Notes under the pieces: model-generated | Database searches by the model: none | Told to the model about the DNA's origin: nothing | The model's input: the letters and a program-made list of their open reading frames with translations, nothing else | Origin: a virus | Lineage: Duplodnaviria > Heunggongvirae > Uroviricota > Caudoviricetes | Reading direction: 5' to 3' (one strand) | Virus record (IMG/VR): IMGVR_UViG_3300045988_150439 | DNA length: 64,000 nucleotides | Made by a program: the position numbers and the translations under genes | In this document: positions 3,953-35,036 of the stretch, one piece after another | How positions within the stretch are numbered: position 1 is the stretch's first letter | Layout: each line of letters opens with the position of its first letter

Positions 3953-5293
3953 ATGACCGAACTTTGCCATACAGGACGCGGGCTGTCCGAAGAGTTTGAT
4001 GAAGATTTCCAGAACAGACTGACGGCATATTTTTGTCGTGATCACGAGTTTCTTACTCGTGCGGGAGATCTGGTTGTGCCTAGCCAATTTGCCAATGCGG
4101 CCAATGCCATATTGGTTAATATGGTTTCGGGCTATTACCGTATGTACAAGAGCGCGCCCTCTTCATCTGCAATTCTGGATATGCTTAAGCGTGCGAAACG
4201 CGATAAGACTATCCGTGAGGAACTATTCGCCGATGTTGTTGCTGCGTTTAAGCGCATCCTTGCAGAAAAATTGTCCGATACCTCGTACATGGTTGACCAG
4301 GTATCAACCTTCGCAAAAAGCGTAGCGTTTGATGATGCTCTGATTAAGGCTGCTGAACTGAAAGAGAAGGGCGACTTTCAGGGGGCGATGGCAATCATGG
4401 CCAAGGTTCAGCAGATTGGATCGAACGAAGCGACCGGAATCTATGACTACTACACCTCAGCAAGTGAGCGACTGAAAGCGCGTGAATATGAGGCCTCAGA
4501 GGAGTATGTGCCAAACAGTATTACAACTGGACTCCCTCTTCTCGATAGGTTGCTGTACCAAAAAGGCTGGGCAAAGCGCGAAATGGTGCTCTTCATGGGG
4601 TTCGCTAAATCCGGTAAATCGACCGCAATGGGTGAGTTTTCCATAAACGCAACGCTTGCTGGCTACAATGTTCTGTATCTCTCGCTGGAGGTTCACACCA
4701 CCATTTTATCCGACCGTTTTGACGCAAGATTGTCGGAGACAGAAATGTCCAAGCTGGTGGAACGGCGCGATGAGGTTCATCGTAAGTTGGCAGAGTTGGG
4801 AGCCACGAAGGGGATTGGTAGTTTGTGGGTGGTTGAGCGTCCGTCAGGAAGTATATCACCGGCAGATCTGGATCGTATGCTCAACAGCATGAAAGCCAAT
4901 GGCATGGTGCCTGACATGGTTGTTGTCGACTACGCAGATTTGATGCGTGCCAGTTATGACCTTCGTGATGATCGCGCCAACATTCGTAGTATCTACACCG
5001 ATTTGCGTGCTCTTTATGACAAGCATAACGTTGCTGGGATCACGGCATCGCAGACAAACCGTGAAGGTGGCGCGTCAGAAGTTGCCACAATGATGCACGC
5101 TGCCGACAACATCGAAAAAGTACGTATTGCTGACCTGGTAATAACGATCAACAAAACCGAAGAAGAAGAAGCGAAAGGAGAGGCTCGTCTCTACTTTGCT
5201 GGTTCACGTAACCAGCAGGGAGGGATCAGCATTCGCGTTAAACAAAACCTCGAACAAATGCGCTTCATTGAGCGAATCTTAGACGTTACCTAA
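3953..5293 (+). CDS. DnaB/gp41-like replicative DNA helicase
   Basis: C-terminal RecA-fold with Walker A GFAKSGKST and Walker B-like MVVVDYADLM; sits directly upstream of a primase-like gene. Confidence 0.6.
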   Translation: MTELCHTGRGLSEEFDEDFQNRLTAYFCRDHEFLTRAGDLVVPSQFANAANAILVNMVSGYYRMYKSAPSSSAILDMLKRAKRDKTIREELFADVVAAFKRILAEKLSDTSYMVDQVSTFAKSVAFDDALIKAAELKEKGDFQGAMAIMAKVQQIGSNEATGIYDYYTSASERLKAREYEASEEYVPNSITTGLPLLDRLLYQKGWAKREMVLFMGFAKSGKSTAMGEFSINATLAGYNVLYLSLEVHTTILSDRFDARLSETEMSKLVERRDEVHRKLAELGATKGIGSLWVVERPSGSISPADLDRMLNSMKANGMVPDMVVVDYADLMRASYDLRDDRANIRSIYTDLRALYDKHNVAGITASQTNREGGASEVATMMHAADNIEKVRIADLVITINKTEEEEAKGEARLYFAGSRNQQGGISIRVKQNLEQMRFIERILDVT

Positions 5294-9441: not shown

Positions 9442-9640
9442 ACGGGAGAAGGAAACGCTTCATGAAATCAGTAAGTGGCCGGAGTTCCCTGAGTACTGGA
9501 AGCCTAAAACGCGAGCTAAGTTAGAGCGTTTAGGGTTGGTTGCAAACGTTTCTGAAACGTGGTGTTCGGCCAACTACCAGTTAACTGATAAAGGGAAAGT
9601 ATTGCTACAGCAATTAGTAGAATCAGGAGCGTTAAAATGA
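9425..9640 (+). CDS. hypothetical small protein
   Basis: 71 aa ORF overlapping neighbours by a few bases (operon-like packing). Confidence 0.3.
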   Translation: MIVLSKREKETLHEISKWPEFPEYWKPKTRAKLERLGLVANVSETWCSANYQLTDKGKVLLQQLVESGALK

Positions 9641-10076: not shown

Positions 10077-10466
10077 AAACATGGTGATAAGTATTTACTT
10101 ACTTATCTTTTATGTATAAGATGACTTTGTTTTCGTTGAGACGCGACTGTTTGAACTTAAATACAAGTGCAAACGAAGAAGTCTATCTGGCAGTAGCCTA
10201 ATAAGCCAAACACCAGCGAGGTCAGTTTCCAGCCTCGTTACCGAAATGGGACACACTGAGCGAGTGTGATTGCAGAACGCAGGAGGGAACATTCATGTTC
10301 CCTCCGATGAAGTAACAGAATGGGCGGTTGGTATATTTTCAACTCCATATGACTCCCGGATTCTTAGCCACTGACCGCCCATCCTGTTACGTCATTTTGT
10401 TCAATTATGTCGTTTATACTGGGTTAAAAAGCGGCGACGTAGCCCGGCTGGTATGGTTAGCCAGCA

Positions 10467-10588
10467 CACAACGTTGAGGCCATTACATTTTTATCAATTC
10501 TAAGGTTCTATTCACAGAGATACCGGCGAGCGTTGATATGTAACATGTTGGGCAAACATTCAATCGGAGTAGTGGCCTCAACGTTGTG
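10467..10588 (+). repeat. long-range hairpin element (16-bp perfect inverted repeat enclosing about 90 nt)
   Basis: cacaacgttgaggcca at 10467-10482 is the exact reverse complement of 10573-10588. Confidence 0.5.
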
Positions 10589-10854
10589 AAGACGGGATTG
10601 TTGTGTAGGTTTAACCACTGTTGCCATTGGTGCCTGTTTTCACAACAAATGATTCCATACATCACATTGTATAAATTACAAAGTAGGTGCTGTCCTCAGA
10701 AACATCATCTACTTAAAGATTTTGCCTTCTACTATTGAGCGAAGTCGAAAGCGTCTGGCACTAACGAAAAGTGCAAGTAGCGGTGCGTTTCCTGGCAGAA
10801 ACTAAACCGTCGCGATTGGCACTGTTGAGTAATAAATACTGGCAGTGCTGAATT

Positions 10855-10929
10855 GATGGTGTAGCTCAGCGGTAGAGCAGTTGGCTGTTAACCAACTGGT
10901 CGGTGGTTCGAATCCACCCACCATCGCCA
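10855..10929 (+). tRNA. tRNA-Asn (anticodon GTT)
   Basis: Hand-folded cloverleaf: acceptor gatggtg/caccatc, D-arm gctcagcggtagagc, anticodon loop ctGTTaa, T-arm ggtggttcgaatccacc, encoded CCA. Confidence 0.8.
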
Positions 10930-10932
10930 ATG

Positions 10933-11007
10933 CCGGTTTAGCTCAGTTGGTAGAGCACCTGCCTTGTAAGCAGGATGTCAGCGGTTCGATCCCGTTAACC
11001 GGCACCA
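10933..11007 (+). tRNA. tRNA-Thr (anticodon TGT)
   Basis: Acceptor gccggtt/aaccggc, D-arm gctcagttggtagagc, anticodon stem cctgc/gcagg with loop ctTGTaa, T-loop ttcgatc, encoded CCA. Confidence 0.75.
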
Positions 11008-11026
11008 ACACAACAGGTAAGAGCAT

Positions 11027-11100
11027 TGGGCGAATCGGCGATACTGACCCACAAGCCCGTAAATCGATAGAGTCAGACCAGTGCTCTTACCGTTGTGAGG
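11027..11100 (+). repeat. long-range hairpin element ending in cttaccgttgtga
   Basis: gtaagagcattgg pairs with ccagtgctcttac (one G-U) enclosing about 48 nt; not foldable as a tRNA. Confidence 0.4.
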
Positions 11101-11156
11101 AAGTGCAGCTCTTTGAAGCAACCAGAAGATAAGCATCTGGCTTCACAACACAACGA

Positions 11157-11219
11157 TAAGATCATTACGGTTAATCGTCGTTCATGTGCACAATGACTGG
11201 TCGAAAGGTAGTGATCTTA
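11157..11219 (+). repeat. long-range hairpin element ending in cttaccgttgtga
   Basis: taagatcattac pairs with gtagtgatctta (one G-U); same 3' tail as the element at 11027-11100. Confidence 0.4.
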
Positions 11220-11327
11220 CCGTTGTGATGAATGCACAGGCTGATGTGCCGCAACTACAGTAGTGCGCGCTTTGCGGGGCTTGCTACAACCCTGTGTCGG
11301 AGTTCAGCACCGACCATCACAATAGCT

Positions 11328-11414
11328 GGAGAGTAGGGAGCATGGTGCTCAAGCGGTCTTGAAAACCGTCCCATTGCGCAAGCGATGATGGTTCGATTCC
11401 ATTACTCTCCGCCA
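11328..11414 (+). tRNA. tRNA-Ser (anticodon TGA), long variable arm
   Basis: 87 nt; acceptor ggagagt/actctcc, anticodon loop ctTGAaa, long extra arm, T-loop ttcgatt, encoded CCA. Confidence 0.7.
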
Positions 11415-11417
11415 GAC

Positions 11418-11493
11418 ACAGCGTTGAGCGGTTTGGCCTTTTAATCACCCAGATTAAGACTCCGCTAACATAAACCAGACCGCTCAACGCTGT
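11418..11493 (+). repeat. long-range hairpin element immediately 3' of tRNA-Ser
   Basis: acagcgttgagcggt (11418-11432) is the exact reverse complement of 11479-11493. Confidence 0.45.
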
Positions 11494-11567
11494 GATAGAC
11501 AATTACGGCAGACGTTCTTAACCATAGCTTGCTAACATCCTAGCAACACTTTTTTTCAGCGCAAAAT

Positions 11568-11592
11568 TCAAAGGGGCTTCGGCCCCTTTTCT
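11568..11592. terminator. bidirectional Rho-independent terminator
   Basis: GC hairpin aaaggggcttcggcccctttt with A-run before and T-run after; lies between the tRNA block and the 3' end of the minus-strand gene 11593-12804. Confidence 0.6.
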
Positions 11593-12804
11593 TCAAAAAA
11601 GTTTTATAAATTCATAATTCTGGTCAATTAAGGATTCAATACACACCATGCAAAAATCTACATCGTTAAAATCAGGTGTGTAATATTCATCCTCATAACA
11701 TTCATTTAGACCTTCAATCAATTTTTCTTTAAAAACTCCCCACGTTTCAATATGAACCATTTCCATATAAGGCGCATGTGTATGTACTTGCAATACATCC
11801 CAGGTGTCTATAACCTCGATCCGCGGCTTGCAATTAATTTTTTCTAAATATGCCCTCCCAGAATTGTAAATTTTCGACATTGATGCCCCAAAACCTGATG
11901 GTTGGTAATGAGTGTAAATGTCATAAATTTTTTGTCCTATTCTAGGGAGTTGAGAAGCATTGGATATTTGTGGCGAATGAAAGTATCGCTCTATGGAAGA
12001 AAACGCAGAAACATTAACTAGAGTAATCGTATATGGTGCTAAAGTTCTCTCGTTCAAATTTCTACATAAAATAGCAAACCCATGGCTATTAGTCTTTTCA
12101 CCGTCTGAGGACATTTTTGCCATGCTGGCTTTAATAACATTCAATTTCGAATGTAAACGAGAAGTGGAAGTCGGTTGATTATACATTTCATCATCATACA
12201 AACATATATGAAACCCGCCAAGATGACGAAATGAGAACTTGAGTGCTTCTTCCGCAATAACTAATTTATTAATATCTAAAGGAGTAAGTGATACGTTACC
12301 TTGTAAATCATAGCAAGGTTCTAAACATAGAAAGTTTTTCTTCTGCCACACAATCATATTAAAAATAAAGTGTCTAACCAAAGGTGGCCAGTCAGGTGAT
12401 ATAAGTACATTGGTAATATCTCCATCAGACAAGTATGACAAGTAACTTTTTAGTTCCGCAGCATATGCCACTAGCTCAGTTCCAGCTTCCCTTGTTGGTG
12501 TTGAAAAATTTTTTAACTCAATAAGAACTAAGGATTCATTCTCTGTTGAATAAGCAACGACATCAGGTCTTAATATCTCAGATTTTGTTGCTGAGATATT
12601 TTCATCATCTGTCATTAAATGTAACAATGTTATATTCTTTAAACAAAACTGATAACTCTCCTTAATTTTTTTCTCTTCGGGTCTTTTCGGATTAAATTCA
12701 TTTAATTTATCAATATTGATGATTGAATTATATAATCCATCTTGATCAGATAATTTGTCAATTATCCAATTTTGCATTTCCTTTTCGCTTAAAAATATTG
12801 ACAC
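11593..12804 (-). CDS. PD-(D/E)xK nuclease-like protein, putative (second gene of an AT-rich two-gene module)
   Basis: 403 aa; N-terminal region carries a PD-x14-ExK arrangement (RPDVVAYSTENESLVLIELK); GTG start with GGAG RBS; strongly AT-rich; 26 bp downstream of its partner. Confidence 0.4.
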   Translation of the reverse strand: MSIFLSEKEMQNWIIDKLSDQDGLYNSIINIDKLNEFNPKRPEEKKIKESYQFCLKNITLLHLMTDDENISATKSEILRPDVVAYSTENESLVLIELKNFSTPTREAGTELVAYAAELKSYLSYLSDGDITNVLISPDWPPLVRHFIFNMIVWQKKNFLCLEPCYDLQGNVSLTPLDINKLVIAEEALKFSFRHLGGFHICLYDDEMYNQPTSTSRLHSKLNVIKASMAKMSSDGEKTNSHGFAILCRNLNERTLAPYTITLVNVSAFSSIERYFHSPQISNASQLPRIGQKIYDIYTHYQPSGFGASMSKIYNSGRAYLEKINCKPRIEVIDTWDVLQVHTHAPYMEMVHIETWGVFKEKLIEGLNECYEDEYYTPDFNDVDFCMVCIESLIDQNYEFIKLF

Positions 12805-12830: not shown

Positions 12831-13652
12831 TTAAAAATCTTGCTTTACTTTATCCATAGTCAGAATTTTGCTAATAATTGAAGATTCAAATCCATCTAAA
12901 CCTGAGAGAAAGTTAATTAGCTTTTGGATATGTTGTTCTTTAGGTATAAGTATATATTTTATATCATTGAACTCAAAATCAATGCCAAACTTTGAAAATT
13001 TTGAGCTAATTTTTGCTTTGTCATCAGAAGTGATAACACGCTCCAAACTCAGACTAGGCCATAAATCACCAATAAAAGGAGCTGGCACATAACGCCACTC
13101 TTTCTCGTCTGCATATATATAATTCTCTATTGTTTTATTATCTTTTCGCTCTAGCTTGCCTCTGTAATTTTTCATATAACGCAGTAAATTATATAGATCA
13201 GAATATTCTGCTTTCAATTTCTCAAACTCTATTCTGTTTTTGGTATCTAAATTTCCTCTAGCCTTCCAAAGCGGCACCAACTTTTTTTTAATAAGTCGAA
13301 TTCTGGCATTGTATTTAGAAAATATTTCACTGCTCTTATTCATATATAGAACTGGGTGTAGACCTTTCTTTTCCGCCCAAGACTTAGTTAGCCCAAGACC
13401 GAATTCCCCATATTTTCCGCTATGATCTCTGATTTGTGATAGTTTTATGTCACAAAACGATACCATTGGTACTGCAAACCTCCTGCGTCCCCCGACTCCT
13501 CTTATTTCCTCGCGAGCAAGAAATGGTTTAAAATATTTCTCAGCCAATATGCTATAGAAAGCATCTTCGTTTTTTGTAAAATGAAACAACGTGGTTGGAT
13601 GAAGACTATAAACAGATTCAACATTCGCATCAGGATTTTCAAGGATAGTCAT
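12831..13652 (-). CDS. Abi-like hypothetical protein (first gene of the AT-rich two-gene module)
   Basis: 273 aa from the ATG at 13652 (RBS aaggtg); AT-rich, Lys-rich; gene sizes and order resemble two-gene abortive-infection modules such as AbiGi/AbiGii, but this is an unverified recollection. Confidence 0.35.
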   Translation of the reverse strand: MTILENPDANVESVYSLHPTTLFHFTKNEDAFYSILAEKYFKPFLAREEIRGVGGRRRFAVPMVSFCDIKLSQIRDHSGKYGEFGLGLTKSWAEKKGLHPVLYMNKSSEIFSKYNARIRLIKKKLVPLWKARGNLDTKNRIEFEKLKAEYSDLYNLLRYMKNYRGKLERKDNKTIENYIYADEKEWRYVPAPFIGDLWPSLSLERVITSDDKAKISSKFSKFGIDFEFNDIKYILIPKEQHIQKLINFLSGLDGFESSIISKILTMDKVKQDF

Positions 13653-13801
13653 TTTACACCTTGTGGAAAGCCAGTTTAGTTCTGTAAATAGTATCACACG
13701 ACAGGCGGCTATTCTTCTATCAATAAAGGATAGGTAAGCACTTACTTTTTACGCGCGTTAATTGTATAGTTCTTTCGGATACTCACTTGAAAGGACTCAA
13801 T

Positions 13802-14900: not shown

Positions 14901-15311
14901 ATGAAGATCACATGGAACAGTGATAGTTACGCCCAATTTTTAAAGCCGACCTTCGATATAAAGCCTGACTTAGAGATTACGTTACTCAACGATTTCAAGT
15001 CGTTTAAACAAGGCATGTACCCAGCCCTATTCGGCAAAGATGGCCCGTATACGGCTCCTGGTGCTATCGTGTCCTCCCGCGTTTATCACGTTCATCTCTT
15101 GTTCACGAAGCAAGAACGAACCAGCAGCCGCAGCAGATTCAATTGCACAAGCGACCGTGCACTCGTTTACAGTCAACATGCACATTTCCAAGATGTGTAT
15201 AGCCTATTGGCAATCTTCCCTAACAACGCACATCAGTACGCGAAAGATCCAAAAATTATGGTCGATATCGCTGCCTACGCGGCCGCATTTCAAGCTCTCA
15301 CTAACCCTTAA
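14901..15311 (+). CDS. YafO-family toxin-like protein
   Basis: 136 aa; segments FGKDGPY...VYHVHLLF, RALVYSQHAHF and LLAIFPNNAHQYAKD...AAYAAAF parallel E. coli YafO as recalled from memory (not searched). Confidence 0.45.
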   Translation: MKITWNSDSYAQFLKPTFDIKPDLEITLLNDFKSFKQGMYPALFGKDGPYTAPGAIVSSRVYHVHLLFTKQERTSSRSRFNCTSDRALVYSQHAHFQDVYSLLAIFPNNAHQYAKDPKIMVDIAAYAAAFQALTNP

Positions 15312-24700: not shown

Positions 24701-24973
24701 AAAGAATTATGGCGCTTGTTGAGGAAGTCACTCCTCTTACGCACTTTGTTTTGCCATGCCGGCAGTTAGCTTCTGCCTTTGACTATTCATGCGGCAACCC
24801 CGCATTTCGCCACAATGGGCAATTCACTTTTATGGAATAAACTGGCCGTTGTGTCGATTTAATTAGCATGGCCTTACCATGCTAATTTATTCAACTTGTA
24901 AAATCCTACAAATCTATCCACTCAGGCTTACACCGTCTTCGTTATTGTAGAAATGAGGATCATCAGCGTTGAA

Positions 24974-25189
24974 TCAGCTTAGAGCAACGACATTTGCTGC
25001 TGCTGGGCCTTTAGCCCCATTCTCGATAGAGAATTCGACCTGCTGGCCTTCTTCCAAAGTGCGGAAATTATTACTCTGAATTGCCGAAAAATGTACAAAA
25101 ACATCTTTACTGCCATCAGCAGGAGAAATAAAGCCAAAGCCTTTATCAGAGTTAAACCATTTTACTAAACCAGTCATTTTATTAGACAT
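24974..25189 (-). CDS. CspA-family cold-shock protein (CspB/CspG/CspI-like)
   Basis: [38 protein letters not shown]... matches E. coli cold-shock proteins almost residue for residue; start taken at the internal ATG (25189) with RBS; long 5' leader upstream. Confidence 0.85.
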
Positions 25190-25518
25190 AGATACTACCT
25201 TCTTAATTTTGTGAGCCACATAGTGCGGCGAGAATTTGATCTGTATAGATTGGGACTTACTTAGGCACTTAAGGAGGAGACTCACGAAGAAGGGAAATCA
25301 GAAGATAACACTGAACTGAGACTGCTTTACTAAAACTGCTTACATAAGGTCTGTCTTGCAAACCAACGATGCTATTAACGCATACCCCTTCTTTTCATGC
25401 AACCTTTATTTTTCAAAGATAACTAATTTTTGTCACCATTGGTTTAGTAAACGTTAACGAACCAGACGATGCCAGACACCTTTACAGAGAACAGATGCCC
25501 GCCAATTGGCGGGCATCA

Positions 25519-34558: not shown

Positions 34559-35036
34559 AACCACTGCGGTGAGTAGCCAGCTCACCGCATTCGTATCAGC
34601 TCATTATCCACTGTGGTCTGCAGTCCTCTCTTCCTACATATCTGCTAACCACTGTAGCGAGTAGACAACCTTTCATTCGTATCAAACAACCACTATGGTG
34701 AGTATTGGAGTGAGATGTCCAGCGAGTATCCACTATGGTGAGTAAGCCTTTGCTGTTTTCAGTGGATATCCACTCGCCACAGTGGATACGCTCAAAGATG
34801 AGGGCGACAACAACCACTATAGACAGTAAATTTTCCAAGATACCCAGTGACCACTAACCTCGCAGCCCTTGTTTCATCAGTGTTAGTGATCACTAACATT
34901 TAATTCAGTATTTGCATTCTACTGCCTACAGTGGTTATCAACAGATAACGATACTCACTATAGTGGATAGCGAATTACAGATATAAGTAAGGCTCACTAC
35001 AGTGGATAGTGAGCCTTACTACTAACTACAGTGGTT
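34559..35036. repeat. iteron array downstream of the rep gene (incA-like control locus)
   Basis: About a dozen copies of CCACTRYRG / CYRYAGTGG in both orientations (e.g. aaccactatggtgagta, ctcactacagtggatag). Confidence 0.6.

Follow-up and report, generated by a model that had tools for sequence, protein, structure and literature searches.

What are the long-stem hairpins that stand between the transfer RNA (tRNA) genes of an Escherichia coli phage-plasmid, and what could they be for? The question is raised by a 64,000-nucleotide stretch of viral DNA (IMG/VR record IMGVR_UViG_3300045988_150439, hereafter the window), which sequence matches identify as an SSU5-like E. coli phage-plasmid and whose nearest records are Escherichia phage CMS-2020a, phage Cyrano and a plasmid of E. 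coli YPE3 at 99.7% identity. Positions 10077-11592 form a 1.5-kb non-coding stretch without credible open reading frames (ORFs), which carries three tRNAs and five long-stem elements, here called hairpins A to E. An earlier note on this DNA had described three tRNAs embedded among five such elements, and both ARAGORN and an inverted-repeat search agree with that description. In this study, the five hairpins are found to be real copies of one unannotated RNA stem family with a helix of about 20 bp. Their membership in a single sequence family, the nature of the spacers as modules related to STnc100/PasD, and the presence upstream of a tag template like that of transfer-messenger RNA (tmRNA) were all absent from the earlier note.

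The hairpins are copies of one RNA family

A covariance model, R2, was built from 27 full-length copies, with hairpin C outside the training set. It defines the family as a 20-bp helix on the tRNA-sense strand, which encloses 23-93 nt and has the base (C)ACAAC-RKTRAG / CTYAMY-GTTGTG. On the 64-kb window, R2 returns exactly five copies at 49-62 bits (E 1e-12 to 1e-16), and the runner-up reaches 12 bits. The five copies are as follows, with the z-score of each fold against shuffled sequences.

10307..10395, + strand: hairpin A, arms of 22 nt (10307-10328/10374-10395), z -5.1, R2 60.0 bits
10467..10588, + strand: hairpin B, arms 10467-10486/10569-10588, z -6.8, R2 62.5 bits
11009..11098, + strand: hairpin C, arms 11016-11029/11078-11091, z -5.7, R2 49.4 bits
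11149..11227, + strand: hairpin D, arms 11146-11168/11208-11230, z -4.7, R2 49.5 bits
11417..11494, + strand: hairpin E, arms 11417-11436/11475-11494, z -11.1, R2 55.8 bits

According to the inverted-repeat search, hairpins A to E have arms of 20-23 nt that are 87-95% complementary, and their stems of 20-22 bp enclose 37-82 nt; the arms of hairpin C extend to 11009 and 11098 with one bulged A in the stem. The earlier note had placed A, B and E rightly, but C and D begin about 8-18 nt before the positions that it gave, and the near-perfect stems that it saw enclosing loops are longer than the 12-16 bp that it allowed them. The shared 3′ tails that it noticed are present, as CTTACCGTTGTGA in C and D, CTCAACGTTGTGA in B and CGCTCAACGCTGTGA in E. 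When the whole window was scanned for stems of 14 bp or more around 25-130 nt, the near-perfect ones were seen to cluster in the array region alone, and none of 200 shuffles of any hairpin was as stable on the + strand (z -4.7 to -11.1).

The family consensus reads 5′ (C)ACAAC-R-K-T-R-AG and 3′ CT-Y-A-M-Y-GTTGTG-R. Hairpins B to E have the common ends 5′ (A)CACA[A/G]C and 3′ G[T/C]TGTGA, and hairpin A is a divergent member with the stem base GTAACAGAATGGGCGG, whose counterpart in P1 and D6 reads TAACAGGCAAGGGCG. Hairpin B is a perfect 20-bp stem with an 82-nt interior. Its 5′ arm is also covered by a CRISPR spacer: the 33 nt at 10455-10487 are 100% identical to a type I-E spacer of E. coli SC418 (NZ_LR778147.1, 1705873-1705905).

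Among related phages, R2 finds about 90 copies in 32 loci, with 2-6 copies in each P1-like or SSU5-like locus. All five copies of the window score higher on the + strand (hairpin A, 60.0 bits vs. 27.4 on the - strand), and the strand of the tRNAs is the better-scoring one in all but one of the roughly 90 copies. A gap-free alignment was obtained for thirty different stems of related phages; 94% of the cells of the resulting 21-bp helix are paired, compared with 35-50% when the columns of the 3′ partner are shifted, a percentage that is partly circular because the aligned stems were gathered with a hairpin filter. Covariation in related elements, which the earlier note had named as a check, is found: both sides have changed in 18 of the 21 stem pairs, and the stems are conserved in homologous regions. 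Moreover, orthologs of hairpin B that were found by synteny, and thus independently of the hairpin filter, carry replacements between GC, GU and AU pairs. These compensatory changes indicate ongoing selection on the stems. In the stems of copies oriented independently by neighbouring tRNAs, G.U pairs on the tRNA-sense strand outnumber A.C pairs by 37 to 8, and the selected structure is therefore one of RNA.

The family is not one that existing tools recognize. The hairpins are passed over by ARAGORN and PGAP, and no family of Rfam 15 (4227 models) matches A to E at the gathering threshold or at E<=10, barring chance hairpins of the miRNA and snoRNA types. The hairpins likewise remained unmatched when the window, P1 and the lambdoid and ~47-kb phage loci were searched with Rfam, both at the gathering threshold and at permissive ones. 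The view of the earlier note that the elements do not fold as tRNAs is borne out, as ARAGORN and RF00005 call only the tRNAs for Asn, Thr and Ser, and no hairpin interior is matched by RF00005 even at E<=10. Literature searches turned up no description of these hairpins or of a tmRNA-like RNA in P1 or SSU5.

Distribution of the family

Copies are found in three settings. The first is that of P1, P7 and D6, and the second is that of SSU5 and its Klebsiella relatives. The third is a Pantoea-type lambdoid phage, which has single copies in its early-left (PL-type) operon, downstream of the repressor gene. A scan of 185,579 species-representative genomes gave true copies in a Pantoea prophage and one metagenome-assembled genome alone. 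The region is present in 776 of 5426 complete E. coli genomes (~14%), at 825 places of which 812 are on plasmids, and its annotation in these genomes consists of the tRNAs alone. In P1, plp and upl are annotated on the strand opposite hairpins c, d and e and their tails (locus L001, P1 NC_005856, 69472-70041), and they are probably not genes.

In the lambdoid contig L052, an unannotated stretch of ~80 nt (4985-5075) lies just downstream of a PL-type promoter. It is 84-92% identical in phages of Yersinia, Salmonella and Klebsiella, and it may be another conserved leader RNA.

Anatomy of the array and turnover of its modules

The hairpins stand in a regular relation to the tRNAs and to the spacers between them, which involves the following further features.

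10583..10646, + strand: helix B2, formed again with the 3′ arm of B (GTTGTGAAGACGGG / CCTGTTTTCACAAC), as an alternative to B or as the next helix, z -3.4
10648..10663, + strand: operator-like repeated motif AATGATTCCATACATC, just upstream of the tRNA block
10855..10929, + strand: tRNA-Asn (GTT), called by ARAGORN
10932..11007, + strand: tRNA-Thr (TGT), called by ARAGORN
11099..11148, + strand: CD spacer with a small hairpin, conserved in P1 although the interiors of the flanking hairpins differ
11223..11322, + strand: DS tail module, type T1, closed by TTGTGATG/CATCACAA and overlapping the 3′ arm of D
11328..11414, + strand: tRNA-Ser (TGA), called by ARAGORN

Hairpins begin 0-2 nt past the CCA of a tRNA: one nucleotide past tRNA-Thr (hairpin C) and two past tRNA-Ser (hairpin E) in the window, and one past tRNA-Thr in P1. 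A Klebsiella hairpin overlaps the CCA of tRNA-Asn, and hairpins that are not placed after a CCA start behind a small helix followed by CA. Each 3′ arm has a second possible partner in the next CACAAC downstream, and this pairing closes a spacer module, as in B2 (10583-10646), in the pairing of the 3′ arm of C with the 5′ arm of D, in TTGTGATG/CATCACAA around DS, and in the pairing of the 3′ arm of A with GACGTAGC. The long hairpins prevail over these spacer-closing pairings in minimum-free-energy folds.

Tails begin directly at the 3′ arm of a hairpin. The DS tail of the window has no Rfam match and a fold that is not unusual (z -0.5), and in its layout it resembles the T2 tails of P1 and lambdoid phages, which are STnc100-like. 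STnc100 (RF02076, gathering threshold 47) scores 33.4 bits on the P1 tail upstream of tciA and 29 bits on the tail of lambdoid contig L052. STnc100/PasD is a family of Hfq-binding prophage small RNAs (bioRxiv 10.64898/2026.05.13.724894).

The interval from tRNA-Thr to tRNA-Ser is built of units, each consisting of a hairpin and a tail of ~100 nt, and these units are gained and lost among plasmids that are 97-99% identical. Cyrano has none and CMS-2020a SCU-107 has one, while the window has two hairpins and SCU-175 has two others. The unit junctions lie in CACAA. A variant with tRNA-Tyr between tRNA-Asn and tRNA-Thr also exists.

A proposed role as RNA punctuation

We propose, tentatively, that the hairpins are processing and insulating stems that are cut by double-strand-specific enzymes, and that their caps may persist as small RNAs. 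The non-coding stretch would be transcribed from the + strand as one long RNA, or as two, should a second promoter lie at the operator-like site at 10648, and each stem of ~20 bp would fold as soon as it is transcribed. Placed as punctuation between the tRNAs, the STnc100-like tails and the tmRNA-like module, the stems could shield neighbouring RNAs from misfolding and from scanning by RNase E. As double-stranded RNA (dsRNA) of two helical turns, they would offer substrates to RNase III and possibly, just 3′ of CCA, to RNase P. Such cuts would free the modules from one another, with short trailers left for exonucleases to trim to CCA, and the excised cap, composed of the interior and upper stem, might survive as a small stable RNA. 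The lower stem (CACAAC../..GTTGTG) would also serve as short repeats through which phages gain, lose or swap entire modules.

We infer the cleavage steps because of this anatomy and of known precedents. RNase III sites are known in T7 and lambda, including leader sites in the lambda PL-type early-left operon, the type of operon in which the solitary copies of the lambdoid phage lie, and RNase P removes the hairpin after leuX. Stem lengths in the family cluster at 17-24 bp, about two helical turns of near-perfect pairing, and by length they would be expected to suit RNase III, for which a site is a transcribed dsRNA of ~20 bp or more. The suggestion of the earlier note that the elements could be processing signals is consistent with the covarying stems, the G.U pairs of the sense strand and the starts 0-2 nt past CCA, and its second suggestion, small stable RNAs, is compatible with the same data.

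Several observations weigh against this reading. RNase III needs no conserved sequence, and processing alone does not explain the conserved lower stem. A very stable hairpin directly after CCA could hinder 3′ trimming. Free energy slightly favours the - strand for A and E, so that the window copies taken alone are mixed. Furthermore, the interiors are not free to vary as mere loops might be. The motifs CACAGAG, CATGTTGGG and AATCGG of hairpin B are kept in Salmonella and Klebsiella orthologs, and AAGACTCCGC of hairpin E is kept in Klebsiella orthologs; across E. coli, Salmonella and Klebsiella, the motifs kept are CACAGAG and CATGTTGGG in B, AAGACUCCGC in E and AUCCCGG in A. The interiors also hold small covarying hairpins. 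The conserved motifs and small hairpins together suggest caps with a function of their own.

A possible role as small stable RNAs

Such caps could be the point of the elements. The hairpins would then be genes of small stable RNAs, in which the constant stem is only a scaffold for stability and processing and the variable interior is a base-pairing seed or a decoy for proteins or nucleases in the conflict between phage and host. Because the conserved interior motifs argue that the cargo matters, we retain this explanation as possible, if somewhat doubtful. The motifs and small hairpins that are conserved or covary among orthologs are joined by interiors that are wholly different between copies with the same stem, and in the ~47-kb phages interiors differ between otherwise similar loci. 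The neighbouring tails, moreover, are related to the Hfq-binding STnc100/PasD. Precedents exist in C4 of P1 and P7 and in species 1 and 2 of T4, which are stable RNAs processed from phage transcripts. However, no complementary target of at least 9-11 nt was found within the 64-kb window, where a search with the interior motifs returned the motifs themselves only, and no Rfam family matches the hairpins. The interior of the first hairpin is also fairly conserved within the P1-like and SSU5-like groups, and not diversifying.

A less likely role as recombination sites in DNA

The module turnover described above could instead be the primary function, with the hairpins acting in DNA as recombination sites or cassette boundaries, either as folded single strands of the attC type or as short-homology linkers for module shuffling. 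Integron attC sites carry AAC...GTT in their R''/R' boxes, and the stem base of the hairpins keeps AAC...GTT. The elements are 70-125 bp long, near-identical plasmids differ in their modules, with the junctions lying in CACAA, and P1-like, SSU5-like and lambdoid phages have modules in common. We nevertheless consider this explanation unlikely. The strand of the wobble pairs is the transcribed strand of the tRNAs; the stems are near-perfect and free of the extrahelical bases typical of attC; and ACACAAC and GTTGTGA depart by one and two mismatches from RYYYAAC and GTTRRRY. The neighbours of the array are the ligase, small ORFs, the AbiG-like pair and glutaredoxin, with no integrase among the flanking ORFs by Pfam, and the P1, SSU5-like and lambdoid carriers have no obvious dedicated recombinase in common. 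An identification with integron attC itself was rejected on the mismatched core boxes and this Pfam result.

A tmRNA-like tag template upstream of hairpin A

Another explanation starts from the sequence upstream of hairpin A.

10125..10306, + strand: tmRNA-like module with a tag template, stop codons and three helices

The module contains the elements of an mRNA-like region, namely a resume codon and a degradation-tag frame that ends in a stop. The template runs on the + strand from GCA to GCC (10169-10198) and is followed by TAA TAA (10199-10204); the frame, GCA AAC GAA GAA GTC TAT CTG GCA GTA GCC TAA TAA, encodes ANEEVYLAVA and two stops, and it has no start codon. Helices follow the tag at 10217-10237, 10251-10268 and 10282-10305. 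Two tmRNA models (RF04321 and RF01850) match weakly over the tag frame, in the mRNA-like region only. At the same position, P1 has the tag ANDDLMMVAA, SSU5 has ANEDTYLAVA and the Klebsiella relatives have ANDNQYLAVA. A scan with the tag pattern found it in at least 120 viral contigs of three phage lineages (P1-like, SSU5-like and ~47-kb enterobacterial phages), in 18 nucleotide versions that encode 13 conservative tag variants, with synonymous changes. The helix after the stop codon forms a pseudoknot, for which the compensatory variants CCGA/UCGG, CCAG/CUGG, CCAA/UUGG and GUCG/CGAC were recognized by eye.

The copy found after the tmRNA-like module is always hairpin A. The tag of the window lies 106 nt upstream of A, and in 75 distinct units from the three lineages a family hairpin stands 80-135 nt downstream of the tag. 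The operon of the P1-like, SSU5-like and ~47-kb phages could encode a split or non-canonical trans-translation RNA, composed of the tag and pseudoknot with the hairpins as joints or as an alanine-accepting minihelix; we give this little credence. It is equally improbable, in our view, that the hairpins, at least those of the A type, are structural parts of such an atypical split system in the same operon. A template that obeys tmRNA rules, the family hairpin that follows it and the compensatory variants of the pseudoknot all speak for these proposals, as do the A-type stems GGGCG(G/C)U...A(C/G)CG(U/C)CC, which have G.U at the third pair in many copies. However, the copy in the window has G-C at the third pair, most family hairpins do not adjoin a tag template, and neither ARAGORN, run at its default threshold, nor Rfam finds a tRNA-like domain (an acceptor stem with G3.U70, a T-arm and CCA). 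Nor can such a domain precede the tag in some ~47-kb phages, where a promoter lies ~75 nt ahead of the resume codon. With a relaxed threshold, ARAGORN does propose permuted tmRNAs in P1, P7, D6 and SSU5, but these were rejected, as it also makes many calls that are plainly false and the acceptor pairing that it proposes competes with a local hairpin. According to Hudson et al. (2014; PMC4131195), phage tmRNA genes are listed for mycobacteriophages and Bacillus phage G alone, and the RefSeq record of P1 should have been in the RefSeq virus set that they searched. If the proposal were true, the phage could re-tag or rescue stalled host ribosomes, and the other hairpins of the array would be paralogous scaffolds with other cargo.

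The weakest explanation, also raised by the earlier note, is that the hairpins are decayed tRNA genes or fragments retaining a complementary leader and trailer; in a P1c-type copy the long stem bears a perfect stacked T-arm (GAGGGUUCGAAUCCCUA), and the interior of E (a hairpin and GACUCCGCUA) resembles by eye the T-arm and 3′ acceptor end of tRNA-Ser, but the tRNA model detects no interior even at E<=5-10, most interiors have no T-arm, the stems evolve by compensation under selection in ~90 copies, and copies occur with no tRNA nearby, for example in lambdoid early operons, so that it lacks support for the family at large and is highly improbable.

Neighbourhood of the array

The non-coding stretch is preceded by a gene for an ATP-dependent DNA ligase and four small ORFs, all on the + strand, and is followed by an AbiGi-like gene pair on the - strand; Pfam identifies ligase, AbiGi, glutaredoxin and YafO among the flanking ORFs. 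Its end bears one further feature, read from the sequence and not flagged by a scan.

11573..11594, + strand: hairpin GGGGCTTCGGCCCC that resembles an intrinsic terminator, with a T run behind it, where the non-coding operon ends

The 16-mer AATGATTCCATACATC occurs in 6 copies in the window (0.84 expected), at 9636, 10648, 15354/15371 (an inverted pair), 21402 and 46836. It looks like a phage repressor operator, as the C1 operators do in P1, and the region at 10648 is a probable repressor-controlled promoter region. A second motif, TTACTTACTTATCTTT, has 8 sites (0.46 expected), at 10085-10110, 3133, 6579, 7438, 19654, 31862, 32095 and 47004. At 10085-10110 it belongs to a palindrome, GATAAGTA..TACTTATC, followed by T's, and it may act as a promoter, operator or terminator.

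The AbiGi-like gene (12831-13697, - strand) and its 403-aa partner (11593-12804, - strand) are inserted directly after the RNA operon, and phage Cyrano is without this pair. A gene for a YafO-family toxin lies farther along (14901-15311, + strand). The site after the RNA operon appears to be a variable hotspot for defence or addiction genes. Elsewhere in the window, 24949-25367 (- strand) strongly matches the Rfam cspA thermoregulator 5′ UTR (183.9 bits), which indicates that the phage-plasmid carries a cspA-like cold-shock gene with an RNA thermosensor. A cluster of direct and inverted repeats with CCACTGTAGCGAGTA-like units at 34649-34789 may represent iterons or a partition site.

Implications

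About 1.2 kb of strongly structured and selected RNA has thus gone unrecognized in P1, one of the best-studied phages. The family definition provides a handle on the maturation of phage tRNA arrays, on the shuffling of RNA modules between unrelated temperate phages and on the role of the tag template. Should the caps or the tag module prove active, they would represent a new kind of phage tool directed at host translation or defence.

Comparison with known systems

Three known RNAs were considered as possible identities, and the first and the last were rejected. The M3 RNA of phi80, a small hairpin RNA and RNase P substrate, is annotated as an oop homolog and is unrelated. The put antiterminator RNA of HK022, compared by its anatomy, appears to differ, since it consists of two irregular stem-loops of ~70 nt just past PL/PR, as opposed to a single perfect 20-bp stem with cargo. 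YrlA (RF02553) gives a weak match (24 bits, gathering 69) that spans two real tRNAs and not the hairpins.

The likeness to integron attC extends to imperfect palindromes of 57-141 bp with a variable centre and a conserved AAC...GTT at the base, which form an array of one orientation between short cassettes. The hairpins differ in that no IntI is nearby, the stems are near-perfect, the core boxes are off consensus and the wobble follows the transcribed strand. In the case of tmRNA (ssrA), including its two-piece permuted forms, the upstream module alone shares the resume codon GCA and the tag AN[DE][DEN]x[YFM][LM][AV][AV]A followed by UAA, together with the A/U-rich context at -6..-1 and a helix and pseudoknot past the stop codon; it differs in having no detected tRNA-like domain.

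Species 1 and 2 of T4, C4 of P1 and P7 and the CI RNA of P4 are also non-tRNA structured RNAs in or near phage tRNA or immunity transcripts; their 5′ and 3′ ends are paired, and processing releases them. The hairpins are unlike them in sequence and by covariance model (Rfam, which presumably includes a C4 model, gives no match), antisense targets of the hairpins are not evident, and there are multiple paralogs per operon. With STnc100/PasD (RF02076) the kinship is one of the tails: those of P1 and of a lambdoid contig match model positions 31-147, below the gathering threshold of 47, and the DS tail of the window shares the GTGAATGC-type opening, the closing helix and the terminal-hairpin layout, whereas the long-stem hairpins are not part of the model.

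RNase III stems, as in the R sites of T7, the N-leader and sib of lambda and the flanks of 16S and 23S rRNA, are alike in being intergenic and in placing about two turns of dsRNA between functional RNAs or genes. The setting in a phage early operon is alike as well, since a copy of the hairpin also lies in a lambdoid PL operon. The hairpins are set apart from these stems by their conserved lower-stem sequence, by a cargo of 25-90 nt that is variable and partly conserved, and by their existence as a multi-copy family.

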